The position numbers were made by a program, and so were the translations under genes. A stretch of DNA of 64,000 bases from Candidatus Krumholzibacteriia bacterium (lineage in GTDB: Bacteria; Krumholzibacteriota; Krumholzibacteriia; JAJRXK01), in the NCBI GenBank assembly GCA_041484665.1, contig JBGPIA010000001.1:256001-320000 (forward strand). The letters are read 5' to 3'. Of the stretch, positions 54,859-64,000 are shown one piece after another. The notes below the pieces were generated by a model, which searched no databases, was not told where the DNA came from, and saw nothing but the letters and a program-made list of their open reading frames with translations. Every line of letters begins with the position of its first letter. Within the stretch, counting starts at the first letter, position 1.

Positions 54859-56208
54859 TCAGCCTTCCAGGTGCCCCGGAATCAGCGGCCGGGTAAGGTC
54901 CTCGCGGCCCGTCGGGGTGACGAGCACGTCGTCCTCCACACGGATGCCGCCCATGGGGAGAAGCGCGTCGATGAGCCGCCAGTCGAGGTCGCGGGCGTCG
55001 GGACCGTCGCGCAAGGGCGCGAGCAGCATCGGGATGAAGTAGAGACCGGGCTCGATGGTCACGACGTGCCCCGGCGCGAGCGCCCGTGTGGTCCTCAGGT
55101 AGGGATACTCGGCGGGAGGCGGCAGCGTGCCACCCGCGCGCGTGGCCTGGCGCCCGCCGATGTCGTGGACCTGCAGCCCCAGATGATGTCCCAGGCCGTG
55201 CGGGAGGAACGGGCGCGTGTGGCCCTTGGCAAGCGCCGTGTCCGCATCCACCTTCACGATCCCCAGCTCGCTGAGGATGCGGGCGGTACCACGGTGCGCC
55301 TGGACGTGCAGCTCGAGGTACGGCTTGCCGGCCGCCACGGCCGCCACCAGCTCGCGCTGCATCGCCTCGACGCGATCCAGCGCCGCACGGAAGACCGGAT
55401 GCACGCCGTTGCGAGCGTAGGTGCGCGTGACGTCGCTGGCGTAGCCGAAGCACATCGCGCCGGCGTCGATCAGGAACGCCGCGCCCGGCCGCGGTGGCGT
55501 CGTGCGCTTGCTCTGGTAGTGGAGGATGGCCGAGCGGTCGTCCCAGGCGATGATATTGCCGTAGGGGCTCTCCAGCTCGGTCATCCCGGCAGCCTCCAGA
55601 TACGCGGCGTGCAGCGCCCGCTCGCTTTCCCCCTGCGCCATCAGGCGGCGCACCGCAGCGTGTCCGCGAGCGGCGATGCGCGCCGCCTCGCGGATGCACT
55701 CCACCTCGTACGGCGTCTTCTGCCCGCGGCTCCAGTCCAGTGCCGCCACCAGCACCGCCGGCTGCACGGCGCCGGCGCCGATCCCCAGGCGCGCGGCCAG
55801 CGTGGGCGAGCTGCCAACGTACCCACAGTCGGCGACGTCGCCCGCGGCCTCGCACGCCTGCTCGGCGGACTCCACCGGGACGACGTCCATGCACGCTGCG
55901 TAGGGATGGTCCACATCGGCGGGGGGCTCGTACCAGTAGTCGCGCGGAACCACGCGGTAGAGCGTGAAGCGGTGCCCGGGACGCATCACGACCAGATGGT
56001 CGGGCCCCGGCACCGGCGCCAAGCGCGCGAAATGCGGGACGGTGTGGAAGGAGACGTCCTGATCGTCGGCGTGGTAGGCCACGGCGGATCCGGCATGGAA
56101 GACGATTCCGCCGAAGGGGGCTTTGTGCTGGGCGCTCAGCTCGAGCGCGCCCGCACACTCGCCGAGCAGGTGCTCGAGGTGATCGGCGAACAGGGTCTTG
56201 GAGATCAT
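54859..56208 (-). CDS. pepQ: Xaa-Pro dipeptidase (M24B)
   Basis: KTPYE; PYGNI; LIDAGA...GYASDVTRT; PHGLGH.LGLQVHD; TIEPGLYFI; GGIRVED. Confidence 0.9.
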   Translation of the reverse strand: MISKTLFADHLEHLLGECAGALELSAQHKAPFGGIVFHAGSAVAYHADDQDVSFHTVPHFARLAPVPGPDHLVVMRPGHRFTLYRVVPRDYWYEPPADVDHPYAACMDVVPVESAEQACEAAGDVADCGYVGSSPTLAARLGIGAGAVQPAVLVAALDWSRGQKTPYEVECIREAARIAARGHAAVRRLMAQGESERALHAAYLEAAGMTELESPYGNIIAWDDRSAILHYQSKRTTPPRPGAAFLIDAGAMCFGYASDVTRTYARNGVHPVFRAALDRVEAMQRELVAAVAAGKPYLELHVQAHRGTARILSELGIVKVDADTALAKGHTRPFLPHGLGHHLGLQVHDIGGRQATRAGGTLPPPAEYPYLRTTRALAPGHVVTIEPGLYFIPMLLAPLRDGPDARDLDWRLIDALLPMGGIRVEDDVLVTPTGREDLTRPLIPGHLEG

Positions 56209-56428
56209 CGGCTTGGACCTTCCGCTGTGGGGCCGATCGGGGGGCGCTGCTGGGCTGTCCCCAGCGGCGAGCGCTCAGTGTAGCCCGCCGCGCGCAGCCG
56301 CCTCAAGGCCGCTCGCGGGCGCGTGCCCCCTGCCCCCTCGTTTGCAGCGAGGCGCGGCGGCGGGCCAGGGGCGCCGGCGTGACCGCGCACGGCGTCGCAG
56401 GGCGGGCGGGGCGGGCCGCGCCGCGCGG

Positions 56429-57436
56429 TCACGCCGTGCGGCTCGCGCGCGAGCGCTGCTCGATGGAGCGCGCGAGGCTGCGGGCGATCTGCGAGAGCGG
56501 TACCACGGTGCAGGGGACCCCCATCTGGATCACCGTGCTGGGCATCGTCGGCGCGACGGCGGTCTCGGGATCCTGCACGATCACGACGCCGCCGGCGCCG
56601 GACACCTGCTCGGCCCCCAGCGCCCCATCGCGGCCCATGCCGGTGAGCACGACCGCCACCGCGCTGGACCCGAACGCCTTCGCCGCGCTGCGCAGCAGCA
56701 GGTCCCCTGAAGGACGCACGTAGTTCTCGGGCGGGGAGTCCACGAGGCGCAGCGTCAGCGTGCGCGGCTCGATCGTCAGGTGGTGTCCCCCCGGCGCGAT
56801 GTACAGCTCGCCGGCCACCGCGTTCAAGCCGTCCTGCGCGATGCGTACACGCATGGGGGTGTCGCGCTCCAGGGCGCGAGCGAACGTAGCCACCATCCAG
56901 TTGGGGCCATGGAGCACGACGAAGAAGGCGGCCGGGGAGTCGACGGTGAGCCCGCGCAGGATCTCGCTGATGGCGGTGGGCCCGCCGGTGCTGGCGACCA
57001 GGAAAACCCCCACGAACGGAGCGGGCGCCGCGGGCGGGGTGATCCGCGCGCCGGTGCTCGCCGGCGCCGGCTGCTCCCGGCGCGCCGACAGGGTATGGAG
57101 CCGCTCGACGCATTCCTGCGGGTCATAGGGCTTGGCTAGGTAGTCGTCGGCGCCCGCCTCCAGGGCGCGCGCCCGGGCCGTGGGAGAATCCAGCGCTGTG
57201 ATCATCATCAGGATGGGCGGCGGGTCGAATGCGGCGCGCACGCGGCGGATGAGCTCGATCCCGTCCATCGACGGCATCATCCAGTCGGTGAGCACGGCGT
57301 CGAAGCGCTCACGCGCAAGCGCGTCAAGGGCCTGCTGGCCGTCCGTAGCCCTCCGGACGTGGTGACCCTTGCGGGTGAGGATGCGTTCGAGCAGGAGCGC
57401 GCTGGCCGGATCGTCCTCGGCGACGAGGATGTTCAC
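56429..57436 (-). CDS. cheB: Receiver + CheB methylesterase protein
   Basis: Receiver (AEDD, DWMMP, KP); ASTGG, VLH and LTGMGRDG catalytic motifs. Confidence 0.8.
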   Translation of the reverse strand: MNILVAEDDPASALLLERILTRKGHHVRRATDGQQALDALARERFDAVLTDWMMPSMDGIELIRRVRAAFDPPPILMMITALDSPTARARALEAGADDYLAKPYDPQECVERLHTLSARREQPAPASTGARITPPAAPAPFVGVFLVASTGGPTAISEILRGLTVDSPAAFFVVLHGPNWMVATFARALERDTPMRVRIAQDGLNAVAGELYIAPGGHHLTIEPRTLTLRLVDSPPENYVRPSGDLLLRSAAKAFGSSAVAVVLTGMGRDGALGAEQVSGAGGVVIVQDPETAVAPTMPSTVIQMGVPCTVVPLSQIARSLARSIEQRSRASRTA

Positions 57437-57808
57437 GGTCTCCCCCTGGTTGGCGAAGCCTCAGGTGTCCGGCAGTGTGGCCGCTGCGGGCGAGCCGGCA
57501 GGGGCGGCGTGCCGCGCGAGCGATCATGTCAGACTGGGGGCCTCCCGATTCGGCCGCCAGGGGACCGACGACCCCTACAGTAACCGCCAGTATCGGGCCA
57601 GCCTGCGACGCGGCGCAACGGCGTTCTGCGCCCTCCCATCGACACGCCGCCGCCGCCGTGGCAACGTCAGCCAGGTCGGGCGGCTCGGCGGATCTCCGTC
57701 GCACGCCCCATTGGGAGCGCCCCTCCACTCGCGCGCACGCGGCTGGCCGAGCGCCGATCAGCATCACGCTCCAAGGCGACGGCTGAGCCCGCTCGCCGAA
57801 AGGCCGCA

Positions 57809-59029
57809 ATGAAGGTCCGCTCGGTCACCTGTTTCATGGACGCCGACCCGGCCCGGCCCGGCGAGGCGGCCGCGCGGGCCGGGGTATCGCTGGCAGCAGC
57901 CCGCTCGGCACTCACCCGCGAGGGCTGGGAGGTCCAGACGACCCGGCTGGCGCTGCCCCCCTGTCCAACATTGCCCGGGATCGAGCCCGCCGGGCTGGCG
58001 CCGCTCGCGCGCCGGCTCGAGGAGGAGGCCGCTGCCCACAACATCGACTTCGTGACGCTGGGTCCGGTGCGCCTGGCCGATCCGCAAGCCTGGAGCGAGG
58101 CCATCCCCGACGTGCTGGCCGGGACCCGGTCGGTGTTCGCCGCCGCCGAGATCGCCACCGCGGCGGGCGGGCTGTCGCTGGGCGCTGTGCGGCGTGCCGC
58201 CCGGGTGATTCACCGCTGCGCACCGTTGGGTGGCGACGGCTTCGCCAATCTGCGCTTCGCCGCGCTGGCCAACGTCACGGCCGGCGTTCCGTTCCTGCCG
58301 GCTGCCTACCACGGCGGCGGACCGCCCTGCTTCGCGCTGGCGACGGAGGCCGCCGACCTGGCCGTGACGGCGTTTCTGGGCGCGGACTCGCTGGCTGCGG
58401 CGCGGGCCCGCTTGCTGCAACTGCTGGAGTCCCGCGCGCGCGACCTGCAGCGCATCTGCACCGCGGTAGCGCGCGACTGCGCCATTGCTTTCAGCGGGAT
58501 CGACCTGTCCCTGGCGCCCTACCCCGAGCAGGCGCGCTCGATCGGCGCCGCCCTGGAGAGTCTGGGCCTGCCGGCGCTGGGGCTGCACGGCAGCGCGGCC
58601 GCCGCGGCGTTTTTGACCGACACGCTGGACCGCGCGCGCTTCCAGCGCGTGGGCTTCTCGGGGCTCTTCCTGCCCGTCCTGGAGGATGACGTACTGGCAC
58701 GCCGCGCCGGCGAGGGGACGCTGACACTCTCGGAGCTGCTCTTGTACTCGGCGGTGTGCGGCACGGGCCTGGACACCGTCCCTTTGCCCGGCGATCTTCA
58801 CGCTGAGCAGATCGCCGCGGTGCTGCTCGATGTCGGCGCGCTCGCGCTGCGCCTGGGCAAGCCGCTGACGGCGCGCCTGATGCCGTTGCCCGGCAAGCGC
58901 GCGGGCGATCCCATCCGCTTCGACTTTCCCTACTTCGCGCCGGGACGCGTGCTGGACTGCAAGGCGCTCCCGCTGACAGGTCTGCTCGCGGGATCGGAAG
59001 CGGTGCCACTGGGCCGCTACGCCCGGTAG
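57809..59029 (+). CDS. DUF711 family protein
   Basis: VQTTRLA; PFLPAAYH; GIDLSLAP; YSAVCGTGLDTVPLPGD; KPLTARLMP. Confidence 0.85.
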   Translation: MKVRSVTCFMDADPARPGEAAARAGVSLAAARSALTREGWEVQTTRLALPPCPTLPGIEPAGLAPLARRLEEEAAAHNIDFVTLGPVRLADPQAWSEAIPDVLAGTRSVFAAAEIATAAGGLSLGAVRRAARVIHRCAPLGGDGFANLRFAALANVTAGVPFLPAAYHGGGPPCFALATEAADLAVTAFLGADSLAAARARLLQLLESRARDLQRICTAVARDCAIAFSGIDLSLAPYPEQARSIGAALESLGLPALGLHGSAAAAAFLTDTLDRARFQRVGFSGLFLPVLEDDVLARRAGEGTLTLSELLLYSAVCGTGLDTVPLPGDLHAEQIAAVLLDVGALALRLGKPLTARLMPLPGKRAGDPIRFDFPYFAPGRVLDCKALPLTGLLAGSEAVPLGRYAR

Positions 59030-59079
59030 CGGCCGTACCGCCTGCGGTCGACGCACAGCTCCACGCGGCAGACGCCCGA

Positions 59080-60687
59080 CTACATACGATAGATGCCGTA
59101 CTCGCTGCGCGGAATGGGCGCGTTCAGCGACATCTCCAGCCCGAGGGCCAGCGCATCGCGGGTCTGCAGCGGGTCGAGCACGCCGTCGTCCCACAGCCGC
59201 GCCGAGGAATAGTATGGGCTGCCTTCCTGCTCGTACTTTTCGAGGATCGGCCGCTTGAACTCCGCCTCCTCCGACGCCGACAGCGCCTTGCCCTCGCGGG
59301 CGAGCTGCTCCTGCTTCACCGTCGCCAGCACGTTGGCCGCCTGCTCGCCGCCCATGACGCTGATGCGCGCGCCAGGCCACATGAGCAAGAGCCGCGGCTG
59401 ATAGGCCCGCCCACACATGCCGTAATTGCCCGCGCCGTGGCTGCCGCCAACGATCAGGGTGAACTTGGGCACCGCCACGTTGGCCACGGCGTTGACCATC
59501 TTGGCGCCGTCCTTGGCGATACCGCCCTGCTCGTACTGCTTGCCCACGATGAAGCCCGTAATGTTCTGCAGGAAGAGCAGCGGAATCCCCCGCGAGCCGC
59601 ACAGCTCGATGAAGTGGGTGGCCTTCAGCGCGCTCTCGCTGAACAGCACGCCGTTGTTGGCGACGATCCCCAGCTGGTAGCCGTACAGGTGTGCGAAGCC
59701 ACAGACCAGCGTGGTCCCGTAGCGCTCCTTGAACTCATGCAGACGCGAGCCGTCCACCAGCCGGGCGATCACCTCGCGCATGTCGAAGCCGCGCCGCGTG
59801 TCCTCGGGCAGGATGCCGTAGAGCTCGTGCGGGTCGTAGTAGGGCGGCTCGGGCGCGGCGGCGGGCGCCACGGCCTTGGTCTGAGGCGGCAGGTTCTCCA
59901 CGATGTTGCGCACCAGCTGCAGCGCCTGCTCGTCGTCTTTGGCCAGGTGGTCGGCCACTCCGCTCACGCGCGTGTGCACGTCGCCGCCGCCGAGCTCCTC
60001 GGCGGTGACTTCCTCGCCGGTGGCCGCCTTCACCAGCGGCGGCCCACCGAGGAAGATCGTCCCCTGCTCCTTGACGATCACGACCTCGTCACTCATGGCC
60101 GGGACGTAGGCGCCCCCCGCCGTGCAGCTGCCCAGCACCGCGCTGATCTGGGGGATGCGGGTCGCGCTCATGCGCGCCTGGTTGTAGAAGATGCGGCCGA
60201 AATGGTCGCGGTCGGGGAAGACTTCGGCCTGCAGCGGCAGGAACGCCCCACCGCTGTCCACCAGGTAGACGCATGGCAGGCGGTTTTCCAGAGCGATCTC
60301 CTGCGCGCGCAGGTGTTTCTTGACGGTCAGCGGGTGGTACGTTCCGCCTTTGACCGTGGCGTCGTTCGCGATGACCATCACCTGGCGGCCGTGGACGCTG
60401 CCGATGCCGGTGACGATCCCAGCGGCCGGCAGGGGGCCGTCGTAGACGCCGTGGGCCGCCAGCGGCGAGAGCTCCAGGAAGGGGCTGCCCGGATCGAGCA
60501 GGCGCTCGATGCGGTCGCGCGGGAGGAGTTTACCGCGCTCGGTGTGAAGCTTGCGCGCCTTCTCGCCCCCGCCCTGACGGATCTCCGCCAGCCGCGCGTG
60601 CAGCTGCGCCACGCGCTGGCGGTTCACCTCGGCGTTGCGCTGGAACTCCGCGGACTTGGGATCGATCGACGTTGGGAGCCTGCGCAC
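59080..60687 (-). CDS. mccB: Methylcrotonyl-CoA carboxylase carboxyltransferase (beta) subunit
   Basis: [46 protein letters not shown]. Confidence 0.9.
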
Positions 60688-60911
60688 CGCGAACCTCCCC
60701 TCCCTGCAATGCGTACTTGCTCACGAGGACGGGCCGAAGCGTAGCATGCGCTCGCATCCCCCTCAACGGAGGCGCCGGGCGCGGGCTCTGGGGCGGGGCA
60801 CGGCCAGCAGCCCACCTGAACCGGCGCTGCGCGCGGCCGGCGGGAATTGGCGCTGCGCGCGGGCGCATGCTAGGCTGCCTGCGCCCGCTTGCCGCCGTGG
60901 AGGACGCCGCG

Positions 60912-62846
60912 TTGGCCTCCCAGGAAGACGATCTCCCGTTTGCCGGCGAATACGTCGACTTCGCCCAGCTCAGCAAGGACGAGCTGCAGGCGAAGATGTT
61001 CGAGTTGCTCACGCTGGTGGAGACCAGCCGTGAGCTGCTGCGCGCACGCGACCCCGAGGAGGTGGCGCGCAGCGTGCTCCTCTCGGTGATCGGAGTGCTG
61101 GGCGCGGGATCGGCATGCGTGCTGCGCTTCGATCCGTCCACCGAGCGCCTGGAGCTGCTGCAACAATTCGGTCTGGACGTCTCCGGGCCGGTCGAGGCGC
61201 ACCTCCCGGTGACGGTGGCGGAGGAGTTCGTCGAGGCGGAGGTGCCGCTGCCATTCCGCGCCGACGAGGATCTCGCGAGCGGTCCCGCGCGCACGTTCCT
61301 GCGGCGCTGCGGCGACGCGCTAGCGCCGCTGGGCGCGGAAGTGATCTGCCCGCTTCCCGGGCGCCGCGGGCTCTTCGGCTTCCTGGTGCTCGGCCATCGG
61401 CTGCTCGCCGCCGGCTACTCGGCGCGCGACCTCGAGATGTTCGCCAATCTGGCCGAGCTCTACGTACTGGCGCTGGAGCGCGCCGCCGTGCCGTTCGCCG
61501 CGCCCGAGGCCGCGCGGCCGGAGCCGCCCCAGGTCCAGATGGCCCTGGCCGAGCTGCGCGAGCGCTACCCACCGCTGCAGCAGATCCTGGGCGACTCCAA
61601 CGCCATCTACCAGCTCTTCCGCGACATGGTGGAGCTGGCCGACAGCCGCGCCACCGTCCTGATCCAGGGCGAGAGCGGTACGGGCAAGGAGCTCGTCGCG
61701 CGCGCGATCCACGCCTCGAGCCCCCGGCGCAACGGGCCCTTCGAGGTCGTGGATTGCTCGTCGATCCCCCGCGAGCTGATCGAGAGCGAGCTGTTCGGCC
61801 ACGTGCGCGGCGCCTTCACCGGGGCCGTGCGCGATCGTCGCGGGGCCTTCGACCTCGCCCATCACGGCACGATCTTCCTCGACGAGATCGGCGAGATGAC
61901 CCTCGCCAGCCAGACGCGACTGCTGCGCGTGCTGCAGGAGGGGAAGTTCCGGCCGGTGGGCGGCGAGACCGTGCACAGCGTGGACGTGCGCGTGATCGCC
62001 GCAACCAATGTGGACCTACGTGAGGCGGTGGCGCGCGGCGAGTTCCGCATCGACCTCTTCTATCGGATCTGCGTCTATCCGCTGCGCCTGCCGCCGCTGC
62101 GGGCGCGCGCGGGCGATATCCGGCTGCTCAGCGCTGCGTTCCTGAAGCGCTTCTACGCGGACTACGGCCTCCGGGAACCCGCCATCGACCCCCGTGTGAT
62201 CGAGGCGCTCGAGCTCCACCCGTTCCCAGGCAACGTGCGCGAGCTGCAGAACATCGTGGAGGCGCTGGCCATCCGCAGCCGAGGCCACCAGCGCGTCACG
62301 ATGAGTCAGCTCAACGAAGTGTTCCGCAGCCAGCGCATCCACGCCGAGCCGCTCAAGGCACCCCCCGAGGCCGGGCCCGGCCCCGGGCTCGAGGAGGTCC
62401 CTGCCGCCCCCGGCCGGGCCGGTGCGGGATCTCCCGCCACAGGTGGGGCTGCGCCGTCCGTCGGTGAGCGCCTGCTCGCCGCGTGGCGCAGCACACGCTT
62501 CAACCTGTTGGAGGCCAGCCGGCTGCTGAGTGCCGGCCGGAAGGAAGGCGAGGGTGTGGCTGTCGCGGACCGCGCGCAGCTGACCCACTATCTCGACGGC
62601 GAGATCCTGAAGGCGTTCGTGCACTCCGGCAGCTTGGAAGCGACCGTGGACGCGCTGGCGGCCGGAGCCAAACCCCGCGAGCGGGCGGAGCGCAAGGTCG
62701 CGCGGGTGGTCGGCCGGCTGCTGGCCACGCTGGAGTCGGCGGAGCCAGGCCAAGGGTTCCCGCGGCTGCCACGCGAGTACCGCGGCGCACTGGATGCGCT
62801 GGAGAACAAGGGGGCCGACTGGGTCCGCGCGTCGATGCGGCGCTGA
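60912..62846 (+). CDS. Sigma54-dependent enhancer-binding protein with N-terminal GAF-like domain
   Basis: [47 protein letters not shown] 60912 follows GGAGG (ATG 60867 and GTG 60897 are alternatives). Confidence 0.92.
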
Positions 62847-62854
62847 GCCGTCCG

Positions 62855-63259
62855 GAAAAAATAGAGAAGGGGCGCCTCTCGCCAAGGCGCCCCCATCAGT
62901 TCTGGCAACCGAAAGGTATTGGGGACCCTTCGATCAGCAAGCGGCCTCTCGCCAAAGCCGCTCGCCTTCGTTGCCAGAGAGGGTTCCTGCGCCCCTGGCG
63001 GGGCGCGTGCGAGAGCTCTCGCCAAACTCCCGGGAACCCAAGCCTTGTGAAGGACCGTCCCTGATCGCCTTTTGCACCGCGCCCGTGTGGGGCACTCTCC
63101 ACGGCCTCGAAGACGTCGCAGTGAGGCGACCGTGGGAGCGCGCGACCCAGAATGGCGCTCAGGTCCGATCTCTCTACCCGCCGGGCGGCCCCCGCTGGGT
63201 CCGGCCGGCTTCGCCGACGAGCGCCGCGACCTTGGATCGCGCTCTCGACAGCGTGGCAG
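62855..63259 (-). ncRNA. Candidate sigma54-dependent structured small RNA with three UGGCGAG-loop hairpins
   Basis: Sigma54 promoter upstream; hairpins at 63011-63031, 62941-62961 and 62869-62893 share loop UGGCGAG; G-U pairs form only on the minus strand; ends in a U-tract. Confidence 0.7.
62856..62893 (-). terminator. Intrinsic terminator (third UGGCGAG hairpin)
   Basis: Minus strand GGGGCGCCT-TGGCGAG-AGGCGCCCC followed by TTCTCTATTTTTT. Confidence 0.7.
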
Positions 63260-63270
63260 TCTTGGCCAAG

Positions 63271-63285
63271 GCAAGCATGGTGCCA
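63271..63285 (-). promoter_or_regulatory. Sigma54 -24/-12 promoter
   Basis: Minus strand TGGCACCATGCTTGC matches TGGCAC-N5-TTGC with exact GG-N10-GC spacing. Confidence 0.8.
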
Positions 63286-63313
63286 GCGGCGACGTCCGGG
63301 GGACGAATCGATA

Positions 63314-63326
63314 TAACATATTGAAA
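63314..63326. promoter_or_regulatory. IHF-like binding site
   Basis: Minus strand TTTCAATATGTTA (consensus WATCAANNNNTTR) in an AT-rich patch about 60 bp upstream of the predicted +1. Confidence 0.6.
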
Positions 63327-63529
63327 ATAAAAGAGTTGATTGTTTCTCGACTGCGCCGCTCCCGTTGATTTTGTTGTCTGTCTTTGTTGTTATGACCACA
63401 CTATCTGACTCGAATATGCTGTATGACAACAATTAGTGTTGCTCGAGGGTGCACCCCACCGTTTCCAAGCAAATGCCGAGATCACCCGGTCATCGCCCGA
63501 ACTCTCGGTCCCTGGTAGACTCCCGCGCG

Positions 63530-64000
63530 ATGTCGGCGGTCCGCACGCTCTGGGTCGGTGCCGAGGCGCTCGTCACGATGGCGCCGGCGGGCACCGTGAT
63601 CCGCGGGGGTTACCTGCGGACCGAGGGGCACCGCGTCGTCGAAACCGGCCCGGGCACCCCGGCCCCCGCGCGCGACGAGGTCGTGCGCCGCCTCGATGGG
63701 TGCGTCGTGGTGCCGGGCCTCGTCAACACGCACCACCACCTCTGCCAGAACCTGACGCGCGCCTACGGGCCGGCCGCCAACGCGAAGCTGTTCGACTGGC
63801 TCGTCGCCCTGTACCCGGTGTGGGCCGGATTCGATCCGCAGAACCTCGCGCTGGCGGCACAGGTGGGCTTTGCGGAGCTGCTGCTGTCGGGCTGCACGAC
63901 GACCAGCGACCATCACTATCTCTTCCCCCGCGGCGCTCCCCCGGATCTGCTGGACGCCACCATCCACGCGGCGCGCGATCTGGGCATCCGTTTCCACGTT
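63530..64000 (+). CDS. Amidohydrolase, 8-oxoguanine deaminase / AtzB-like (partial)
   Basis: ATG 63530 in frame with PGLVNTHHHLCQNLTRA, LFDWL..LYPVW, ELLLSGCTTTSDHHYLFP; runs off the window end. Confidence 0.88.
   Translation, partial: MSAVRTLWVGAEALVTMAPAGTVIRGGYLRTEGHRVVETGPGTPAPARDEVVRRLDGCVVVPGLVNTHHHLCQNLTRAYGPAANAKLFDWLVALYPVWAGFDPQNLALAAQVGFAELLLSGCTTTSDHHYLFPRGAPPDLLDATIHAARDLGIRFHV

Follow-up and report, generated by a model that had tools for sequence, protein, structure and literature searches.

A predicted sigma-54-driven RNA with GGCGA-tipped hairpins, and a candidate partner RNA, in one family of Candidatus Krumholzibacteriota

CrcZ is driven by sigma-54 and is encoded beside its activator, and loops rich in C or in G are common in bacteria that lack Hfq. 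Another sigma-54-driven RNA that is encoded beside an activator gene is Pxr from Myxococcus xanthus, a host without Hfq; excerpts from three papers describe an essential C in its first loop (PMC5568312, PMC5684412, PMC11928866), and one of these excerpts states that the targets of Pxr are unknown (PMC11928866). In Bacillus subtilis (RosA with RoxS and FsrA) and in Staphylococcus aureus (RsaI with RsaE and RsaG), G-rich and C-rich tracts pair between stand-alone RNAs (PMC8216469, in part). In NfeR1, three identical loops lie on divergent stems and are described as redundant seeds (PMC10746234, in part). And work on RbpB and FopS in Bacteroides describes an RRM protein that acts on sRNAs in a lineage without Hfq (portions of PMC11697453 and PMC13370968).

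Here we analyze a predicted RNA gene, which we call RNA1, at 62856..63259 on the minus strand of a window of 64,000 nt of DNA from a Candidatus Krumholzibacteriia bacterium. The genome (G000) is 5.45 Mb and is 93.65% complete. We are nearly certain that the locus is a real RNA gene. Judging from its sequence and its relatives, RNA1 is an uncatalogued non-coding RNA gene of one family, and it is of a kind (the sigma-54 regulatory RNA) that is already known. As with Pxr, the sigma-54 promoter of RNA1 lies beside the gene of its probable activator. But Pxr is about 108 nt, has three stems, and lies directly downstream of pxrR, while RNA1 is 343-405 nt, faces its activator gene, and carries hairpins with GGCGA at their tips. 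The Pxr model (RF01812) gave no match to RNA1 or its relatives with cmscan; genome searches with this model matched nowhere and are uninformative. RNA1 and its loop would be a new RNA family and a new motif for a phylum for which we found no papers on non-coding RNAs (in open-licence PMC and bioRxiv). The GGCGA loop motif had no match in catalogues or papers from the same sources, although supplements of large screens beyond that of PMC2864571 could hold it.

The RNA1 locus and its activator gene

The locus contains these features:

60867..62846, plus strand: gene for a sigma-54 enhancer-binding protein, convergent with RNA1 and probably its dedicated activator (Pfam, alignment)
62856..63259, minus strand: predicted RNA1 gene, about 404 nt, with ends placed by promoter geometry and the terminator
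62856..62894, minus strand: terminator hairpin, capped by the third GGCGA tip (62868-62894), and a pyrimidine/U tail; the stem is kept in 10/10 copies and the motif is in the loop in 7/10
62901..62978, minus strand: domain B, with a closing helix and two hairpins, one tipped with GGCGA (62936-62966) and one variable (fold and alignment)
62981..63039, minus strand: domain A, a three-way junction with two hairpins, one tipped with GGCGA (63011-63031) and one with a GCCA/GCCC/GCUC loop (62989-63006) (covariation)
63081..63093, minus strand: another C-rich tract (GCCCCAC), part of which pairs in the predicted fold (unpaired probability 0.39)
63115..63130, minus strand: C-rich loop hairpin, CCUCAC in the window (CCCCAC in 7/10 copies), a candidate for the seed that pairs with RNA2's GGUGGGG loop (see below)
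63271..63285, minus strand: sigma-54 -24/-12 promoter, TGGCACCATGCTTGC, with TGG and TGC invariant in 15/15 loci
63313..63341, minus strand: AT-rich tract between the promoter and the palindrome (GC 0.30, versus 0.70 genome-wide), IHF-site-like
63385..63431, no strand: upstream palindromes; TGTTGT-N3-ACAGCA at 63417-63431 is a candidate activator site

Much of this was described in a first-pass annotation of the window. CTCTCGCCAA does occur at 62876, 62946, and 63016 (the chance mean is 0.12 matches, and 0/100 shuffles reach 3). The three stems, the helices GGGUUCC/GGAACCC (62981-63039) and UCUGGCAAC/GUUGCCAGA (62901-62978), the U-rich tail, and a sigma-54 promoter (TGGCAC-N5-TTGC) at 63271-63285 are as first described. 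The structure was assigned to the minus strand, and we agree: the minus strand's predicted fold is -222.7, with 20 G-U pairs, and the plus strand's is -185.6, with 4. The fold z score of the region is -4.18. Three details need revision. The loop was given as UGGCGAG closed by U-A, but in the predicted fold it is a pentaloop, GGCGA, with U-G as the closing pair. The exact spacing of 70 and 70 nt is due to chance and is not a feature, since the spacing is 63-72 nt in relatives. A terminator hairpin with the motif in its loop was also described; the stem holds across the family but 3/10 copies have a different loop.

We found 10 copies of RNA1 in 9/10 genomes of one family of Candidatus Krumholzibacteriota. 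All 10 have the same layout facing the activator gene: the promoter, the RNA (343-405 nt), and the terminator hairpin. The copy in the window is 44-51% identical to the others. In G004 (93% complete), we found neither the activator gene nor RNA1. G009 has the whole locus twice (G009:C8 and G009:C9), with RNAs that are 86% identical; one of these copies may be foreign, because this genome is 7% contaminated.

Across these copies, 23/52 consensus pairs changed on both sides while the loop motif was kept, as the first-pass annotation's picture of a conserved loop on variable stems would have it (shuffles, 11.8, with 0/500 reaching 23; slid controls, 5-11). This figure is somewhat overstated because this alignment also supplied the structure and the relatives are not independent. 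In the helices of domain A (helices 2-4 of the alignment), 9/19 pairs changed on both sides. Fold z scores are -3.1 to -6.5 in 10/10 copies (30 shuffles each), and the predicted strand folds better than the opposite strand in 9/10. The terminator tail is U-poor in 2/10 copies.

RNA1 lies outside every Rfam 15 family. None of the covariance models matched it at E<=10, let alone met a gathering threshold; these include Acido-Lenti-1, Bacteroidales-1, Pxr, CrcZ, CsrB, RsmZ, and GlmY. Twelve orthologous or syntenic RNAs had chance-level matches alone (13-21 bits). Acido-Lenti-1 RNAs are about 46 nt and have two short hairpins whose loops are of the CUCAC/CUUCG type; their seed rows in the supplement of PMC2864571 do not resemble RNA1. 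A search of the family for Acido-Lenti-1 gave 0/10, with no control matching.

The distribution of RNA1 is narrow, namely one family. We scanned 185,579 species for the three-copy pattern and obtained 66 stretches, of which 8 were flagged by stem length and 9 were read by eye (one flagged cyanobacterial locus excepted). Four were true, all of them known loci of the family, and none was outside it. Among viral contigs, the pattern gave 119 stretches; in the 80 examined, stem pairs never exceeded 6 bp (2 borderline ones were unread). A covariance model of RNA1 (R1), searched over 151 genomes of the phylum, had strong matches confined to the family. It also had three weak matches: RNA2 and two plain terminators. 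Diverged forms of RNA1 would escape both the pattern scan and the covariance search.

The gene that faces RNA1 is probably its dedicated activator. The protein has a weak GAF domain, an AAA+ domain with an intact GAFTGA motif, and an atypical helical C-terminus. As defined by the C-terminus, this subfamily is found in 14/208 genomes of the class and in two families only: 9/10 genomes of the window's family and 5/7 genomes of a sister family. A sigma-54 RNA gene faces the activator in each of the 15 orthologous copies that we examined. In 8/10 copies of RNA1, the centre of a TGTTGT-N3-ACAACA-like palindrome lies at -162 to -165 (the background is 0.06 per 260 nt), and among 106 intergenic candidate sigma-54 promoters in G000, RNA1's alone carries such a palindrome. 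The conserved promoter and the fixed position of this palindrome argue for the earlier claim that RNA1 is sigma-54-driven.

We also considered feedback on the activator's mRNA through UUCGCC in its early codons. But this motif is explained by a conserved Phe-Ala, and it is absent in 3/9.

Some other observations concern the activator itself. A metagenome scan with the whole protein found 80 generic sigma-54 activators and no near relatives. The C-terminal 129 amino acids (window 62457-62843) have an HTH-like part and a helical extension in a confident model (pLDDT 92), which had no clear structural match (best Z 4.3). A paralog (L319:6340-9335, on G000:C26) faces a GG-N10-GC promoter that drives a 202-amino-acid protein, not an RNA. 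That protein has short L(S/A)P(K/R)Q(I/V)A repeats.

It is very improbable that the locus is something other than an RNA gene, whether a DNA repeat of the REP type, a terminator region, a gene for a small protein, or a set of loops that catch the CCA ends of tRNAs. In a planctomycete record (L122, L167), REP-like palindromes in tandem do have UUGGCGAGAG in their loops as well; these are probably unrelated. But unlike REP/BIME dispersed repeats, RNA1 is at a single locus in G000, and just 5 of the 62 other TTGGCGAGAG sites that we examined in relatives (of 70) form tips. The strand-specific folding and the conserved promoter and palindrome also speak against this explanation. As for a protein, the first-pass annotation saw no credible ORF, and coding scores are indeed negative in all six frames of all 10 copies, with no shared ORF; a 243-amino-acid frame in the RNA1 region scores -0.53, versus +0.54 for the real gene. 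UGGC can pair with the GCCA of tRNAs (7 tRNA genes among those listed end so), but the U before GG is absent in 6/33 tips.

The GGCGA tips and their candidate partners

The 10 copies of RNA1 contain 33 GGCGA-tipped hairpins, or 2-6 per RNA, with the motif (U)UGGCGA(G). (Our tip filter missed one evident tip in G002 and let in two weak ones.) Of the 33 tips, 30 have U at -2, 27 have U at -1, and 30 have G at +1. The stems vary freely and the loop register ranges from 4 to 8 nt across relatives, with a contiguous 8-mer kept. The number of tips changes as well: tips at the 5' end were gained in two genomes, and the tip on the terminator was lost in three copies.

Like CsrB/CsrC, RsmX/Y/Z, and CrcZ, RNA1 shows a short motif repeatedly. 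One idea, that of the first-pass annotation, is a pure sponge like CsrB or RsmZ, whose tips would titrate a translational regulator off mRNAs, with the C-rich loop being incidental or separate. The identical tips on variable stems, and their changes in number, fit this idea. So does the tendency of TTGGCGAG to lie at hairpin tips: it does so at 8/37 intergenic sites (3 of which are RNA1), as compared to 0-3 of 28-43 for four control 8-mers. But the regulon of such a protein is not apparent. The first-pass annotation had proposed scanning the genome for these hairpins in leaders, and GGCGAG is not enriched in mRNA leaders (104, versus 94.5 expected). At 16 of the 62 other sites in relatives, we read the adjacent genes, and none recurs. 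Also, the motif is GGCGA instead of the GGA of CsrB and RsmZ, with 0-2 unpaired GGA per RNA, and CsrA is missing from part of the family: we found it in 5/10 genomes family-wide and in 0/5 genomes of the genus g2 (88-98% complete), where 4/5 carry RNA1. Overall, we consider a pure sponge to be somewhat unlikely.

Which protein might bind the tips? Hfq was not found in G000, to which this search was confined (controls matched). CsrA and Hfq are poor candidates, because CsrA is absent from g2 genomes with RNA1 and Hfq was not found in G000. Unlike CrcZ and CrcY, the 10 RNAs contain 0 AANAANAA motifs, again in a setting where Hfq was not found (G000). ProQ was found in 0/5 genomes. RapZ, too, was found in 0/5 (controls matched in 7), and this sets RNA1 apart from the GlmY/GlmZ decoy. 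A search for an ANTAR protein in G000 gave no match, nor did any control match; and the hairpins of RNA1 are 63-72 nt apart, as opposed to the tandem hexaloop hairpins of the ANTAR sponges EutX and Rli55. RRM genes are present in 10/10 genomes of the family and cold-shock genes in 5/5. By their presence, RRM proteins might be the first candidates for binding the tips, which is the least certain of our proposals. In comparison to RbpB and FopS, RNA1 has no established common motif, and RRM binding is a candidate by presence.

Autoregulation of the RRM genes through the tip motif was rejected: in 26 RRM leaders there is no consistent GGCGAG. Four RRM paralogs in G000 (C1:1023958, C23:26537, C12:108448, and C18:2531) do have in common a conserved and structured-looking type of 5' leader, and most relatives (L335-L355) have another structured-looking type in common. 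These leaders are candidate cis-regulatory RNAs.

In the alpha-r14/cuckoo sRNAs, identical loops are reportedly also found on divergent stems. The GGCGA loops could, like those of these RNAs or of NfeR1 (PMC10746234, in part), act redundantly as seeds, pairing with CUCGCCAA in the mRNAs that they target. Consistent with this, the conserved unit is a contiguous 8-mer in a variable register, and an exact 8-nt complement is found in a sigma-54 leader of G000 (C17:104918, minus strand; L506), where the leader of a histidine-kinase operon carries CUCGCCAA and then CCCCCACC. But this leader had no match in 5 relatives, and the pattern of a sigma-54 promoter plus the tip complement had 5 matches, versus 6 in controls. 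The complement is found near start codons 25 times, versus 25.8 expected, and a BLAST search for antisense matches of RNA1 to leaders found no long match (best E 0.52). No mRNA targets emerged from start-codon profiles, leader BLAST, or SD-anchored patterns. (The counts for leaders and starts rest on our own simple gene calls.) Also, NfeR1 and the cuckoo RNAs have anti-SD CCUCCUCCC seeds, while the repeated loop of RNA1 is purine-rich (UUGGCGAG) and its C-rich loop is a separate module. We regard seed pairing by the tips as quite unlikely.

The C-rich loop and RNA2

The 5' half of RNA1 contains a conserved and mostly unpaired C-rich loop, CC(C/U)CA(C/U), with the variants CCUCAC or CCUCAU in G000 and G007. 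In leaders, CCCCACC is found 58 times, versus 40.6 expected from an order 3 model (z 2.7) but 48.4 from an order 4 model (z 1.4); because z falls to 1.4, this enrichment is weak at best.

The weak R1 match in G003 led to RNA2, a second uncatalogued sigma-54 RNA of 371-385 nt, which we have seen in two genomes:

G000, C3:252551-252935 (L514), minus strand: RNA2, directly downstream of a gene for a TPR-AAA+-HTH activator (C3:253165-256269)
G003, contig C2 (L304:1286-1656), plus strand: RNA2, downstream of a gene for a TPR-AAA+-HTH activator

In lying directly downstream of its activator gene, RNA2 resembles Pxr. Its GGUGGGG loop is invariant. RNA2 also carries a GGCGAG tip and a terminator, and nothing in Rfam came near a threshold. 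The two RNA2s have few long identical blocks. Two blocks of 11 nt are GAGGUGGGGUC and UGGCGAGAUCC. GAGGUGGGGUC contains the GGUGGGG loop, which is unpaired (0.86) in both RNAs, on a stem that changed on both sides (GUGA/UCAC versus AGGA/UCCU). UGGCGAGAUCC is the GGCGAG hairpin tip.

The GGUGGGG loop complements CCCCACC. In 9/10 copies of RNA1, the C-rich loop is the best accessible partner of the GAGGUGGGGUC block (-10.0 to -18.2 kcal/mol), and in G006 the match is a perfect 9 bp. In G005, an accessible partner was not found in RNA1 (-4.1). When the block was shuffled and scored over 15 RNAs, 2/150 shuffles did as well; the complementarity was spotted by eye before this test, and the relatives are not independent. 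Because it was spotted by eye first and RNA2 is from two genomes only, we view the complementarity as a strong lead and not as proof. The C-rich loop of RNA1 would pair with a G-rich RNA, most likely RNA2. Like RosA and RoxS, RNA1 and RNA2 have accessible and complementary C-rich and G-rich tracts, which are computed, with RNA2 from two genomes. Unlike RosA/RoxS and RsaI, both RNAs appear to be sigma-54-driven, under separate activators; they are about 370-400 nt, have a GGCGA-tipped hairpin in common, and have no match in Rfam.

The sister family (f3) retains the activator and the promoter, with a different sigma-54 RNA of 231-249 nt that faces the activator (L016:1228-1458, L017, L018, L019, and L020). 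This RNA has three C-rich loops (CUCCCCUC, CCCCC, and UCCCCAC) and no GGCGA tips. Because the activator and an RNA with C-rich loops are kept without them, the tips are dispensable in the sister family. (In this family, a GNAT-like gene precedes the activator.)

The tips of RNA1 might also be structural or nuclease-related (tertiary contacts, processing, or protection). RNA1 would then act on ribosome-binding sites that are rich in G, solely by means of its C-rich loop and in the manner of Pxr or RoxS; the sister family's C-rich loops fit this. One tip does cap the terminator, and a conserved GC(C/U)(C/A) loop beside the first tip could form a loop contact of 3-4 bp in 9/10 copies. GGCGAA also occurs three times in the 16S rRNA of G000. 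(In our look for rRNA mimicry, the 5' part of the 23S rRNA was not found in the G000 assembly.) But the remaining tips have no nearby complementary loop, and GCGA lacks the closure of a standard GNRA tetraloop. Along with the gain of 5' tips and the loss of terminator tips, this makes a purely structural role highly doubtful.

The proposed pairing also bears on Pxr. CCCCAC, which is found in the sister family's RNA as well, resembles the first loop of Pxr, and the published Pxr probe includes the tract CCCCCCAC (from the excerpts cited above). By eye, and unfolded, part of the CCAC of Pxr is probably in a stem. Pairing between C-rich and G-rich loops is a testable lead for Pxr and suggests a partner with a G-rich loop.

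Proposed roles of RNA1 and RNA2

The C-rich loop and its candidate partner RNA, both of which escaped the first-pass annotation, suggest pairing between RNA1 and RNA2 beside the docking of a protein. Our preferred reading is that RNA1 is a stand-alone RNA with two modules: the C-rich loop would pair with a G-rich RNA, probably RNA2, and the GGCGA tips would dock a shared protein. We give this a probability of roughly 45%. Because the tips are on both RNAs, they are more simply read as the sites of one protein than as target-specific seeds.

Based on the conserved DNA signals, the GAF-AAA+ activator would bind the palindrome at about -165, respond to a ligand of its GAF domain, and open the sigma-54 promoter of RNA1. 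Transcription would end at the last hairpin. The exposed CC(C/U)CAC loop would then base-pair with a G-rich RNA, most plausibly with the GGUGGGG loop of RNA2, which would be under a different (TPR-AAA+) activator. One RNA would neutralise the other, as RosA does RoxS and FsrA; either could be the regulator or the decoy. In this way, two signals might be weighed against each other. The 2-6 GGCGA tips, also on RNA2, may dock one shared RNA-binding protein (the least certain step), which would stabilise the RNAs, process them, or bring them together, and the multivalent RNA1 may titrate it. In short, these sequences suggest a two-RNA control switch that is served by an RNA-binding protein.

Several observations weigh against the two-module reading. 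The C-rich and G-rich loops may each address mRNAs instead. RNA2 is known from only two genomes, G000 and G007 have variants of the C-rich loop, and in G005 no accessible partner was found. Neither RRM leaders nor leaders in general point to GGCGAG, and the RNA of the sister family has no tips. As for the first-pass proposal that RNA1 is a multivalent RNA that binds a protein, a multivalent, non-coding, and apparently sigma-54-driven RNA is what we see, and protein binding through the loops gains indirect support because a second sigma-54 RNA has the same tip; the part that fails is the leader enrichment expected of a CsrA-like regulon.

A more ambitious version is that this lineage lacks Hfq and has two sigma-54 RNAs with their own sensor-activators, which annul each other through CCCCAC/GUGGGG loops, and that both are tagged with GGCGA for a new sequence-specific matchmaker protein that replaces Hfq. 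We think that this is unlikely. If true, the protein would take over the function of Hfq but would recognise a tag and not U-tails. More generally, if different RNAs are tagged for a protein by their GGCGA tips, that protein would help explain how sRNAs are handled without Hfq or ProQ. Because a probable activator, operator, and partner RNA come along with RNA1, the circuit is testable in vitro without culture.

Two observations concern the setting of these RNAs. In the window (54859-64000) and at the loci of relatives, there is a conserved block of genes for acyl-CoA carboxylase, peptidase, and fatty-acid oxidation, along with a FadR-like repressor. This neighbourhood of fatty-acid and amino-acid catabolism hints that the signal for RNA1 is a carbon source or amino-acid catabolism. 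And at G000:C54:884-1600, the RNA2 activator has a second paralog, behind which a sigma-54 promoter precedes a stretch without genes that closes with a hairpin and a U-tract; this may be a third sigma-54 RNA.
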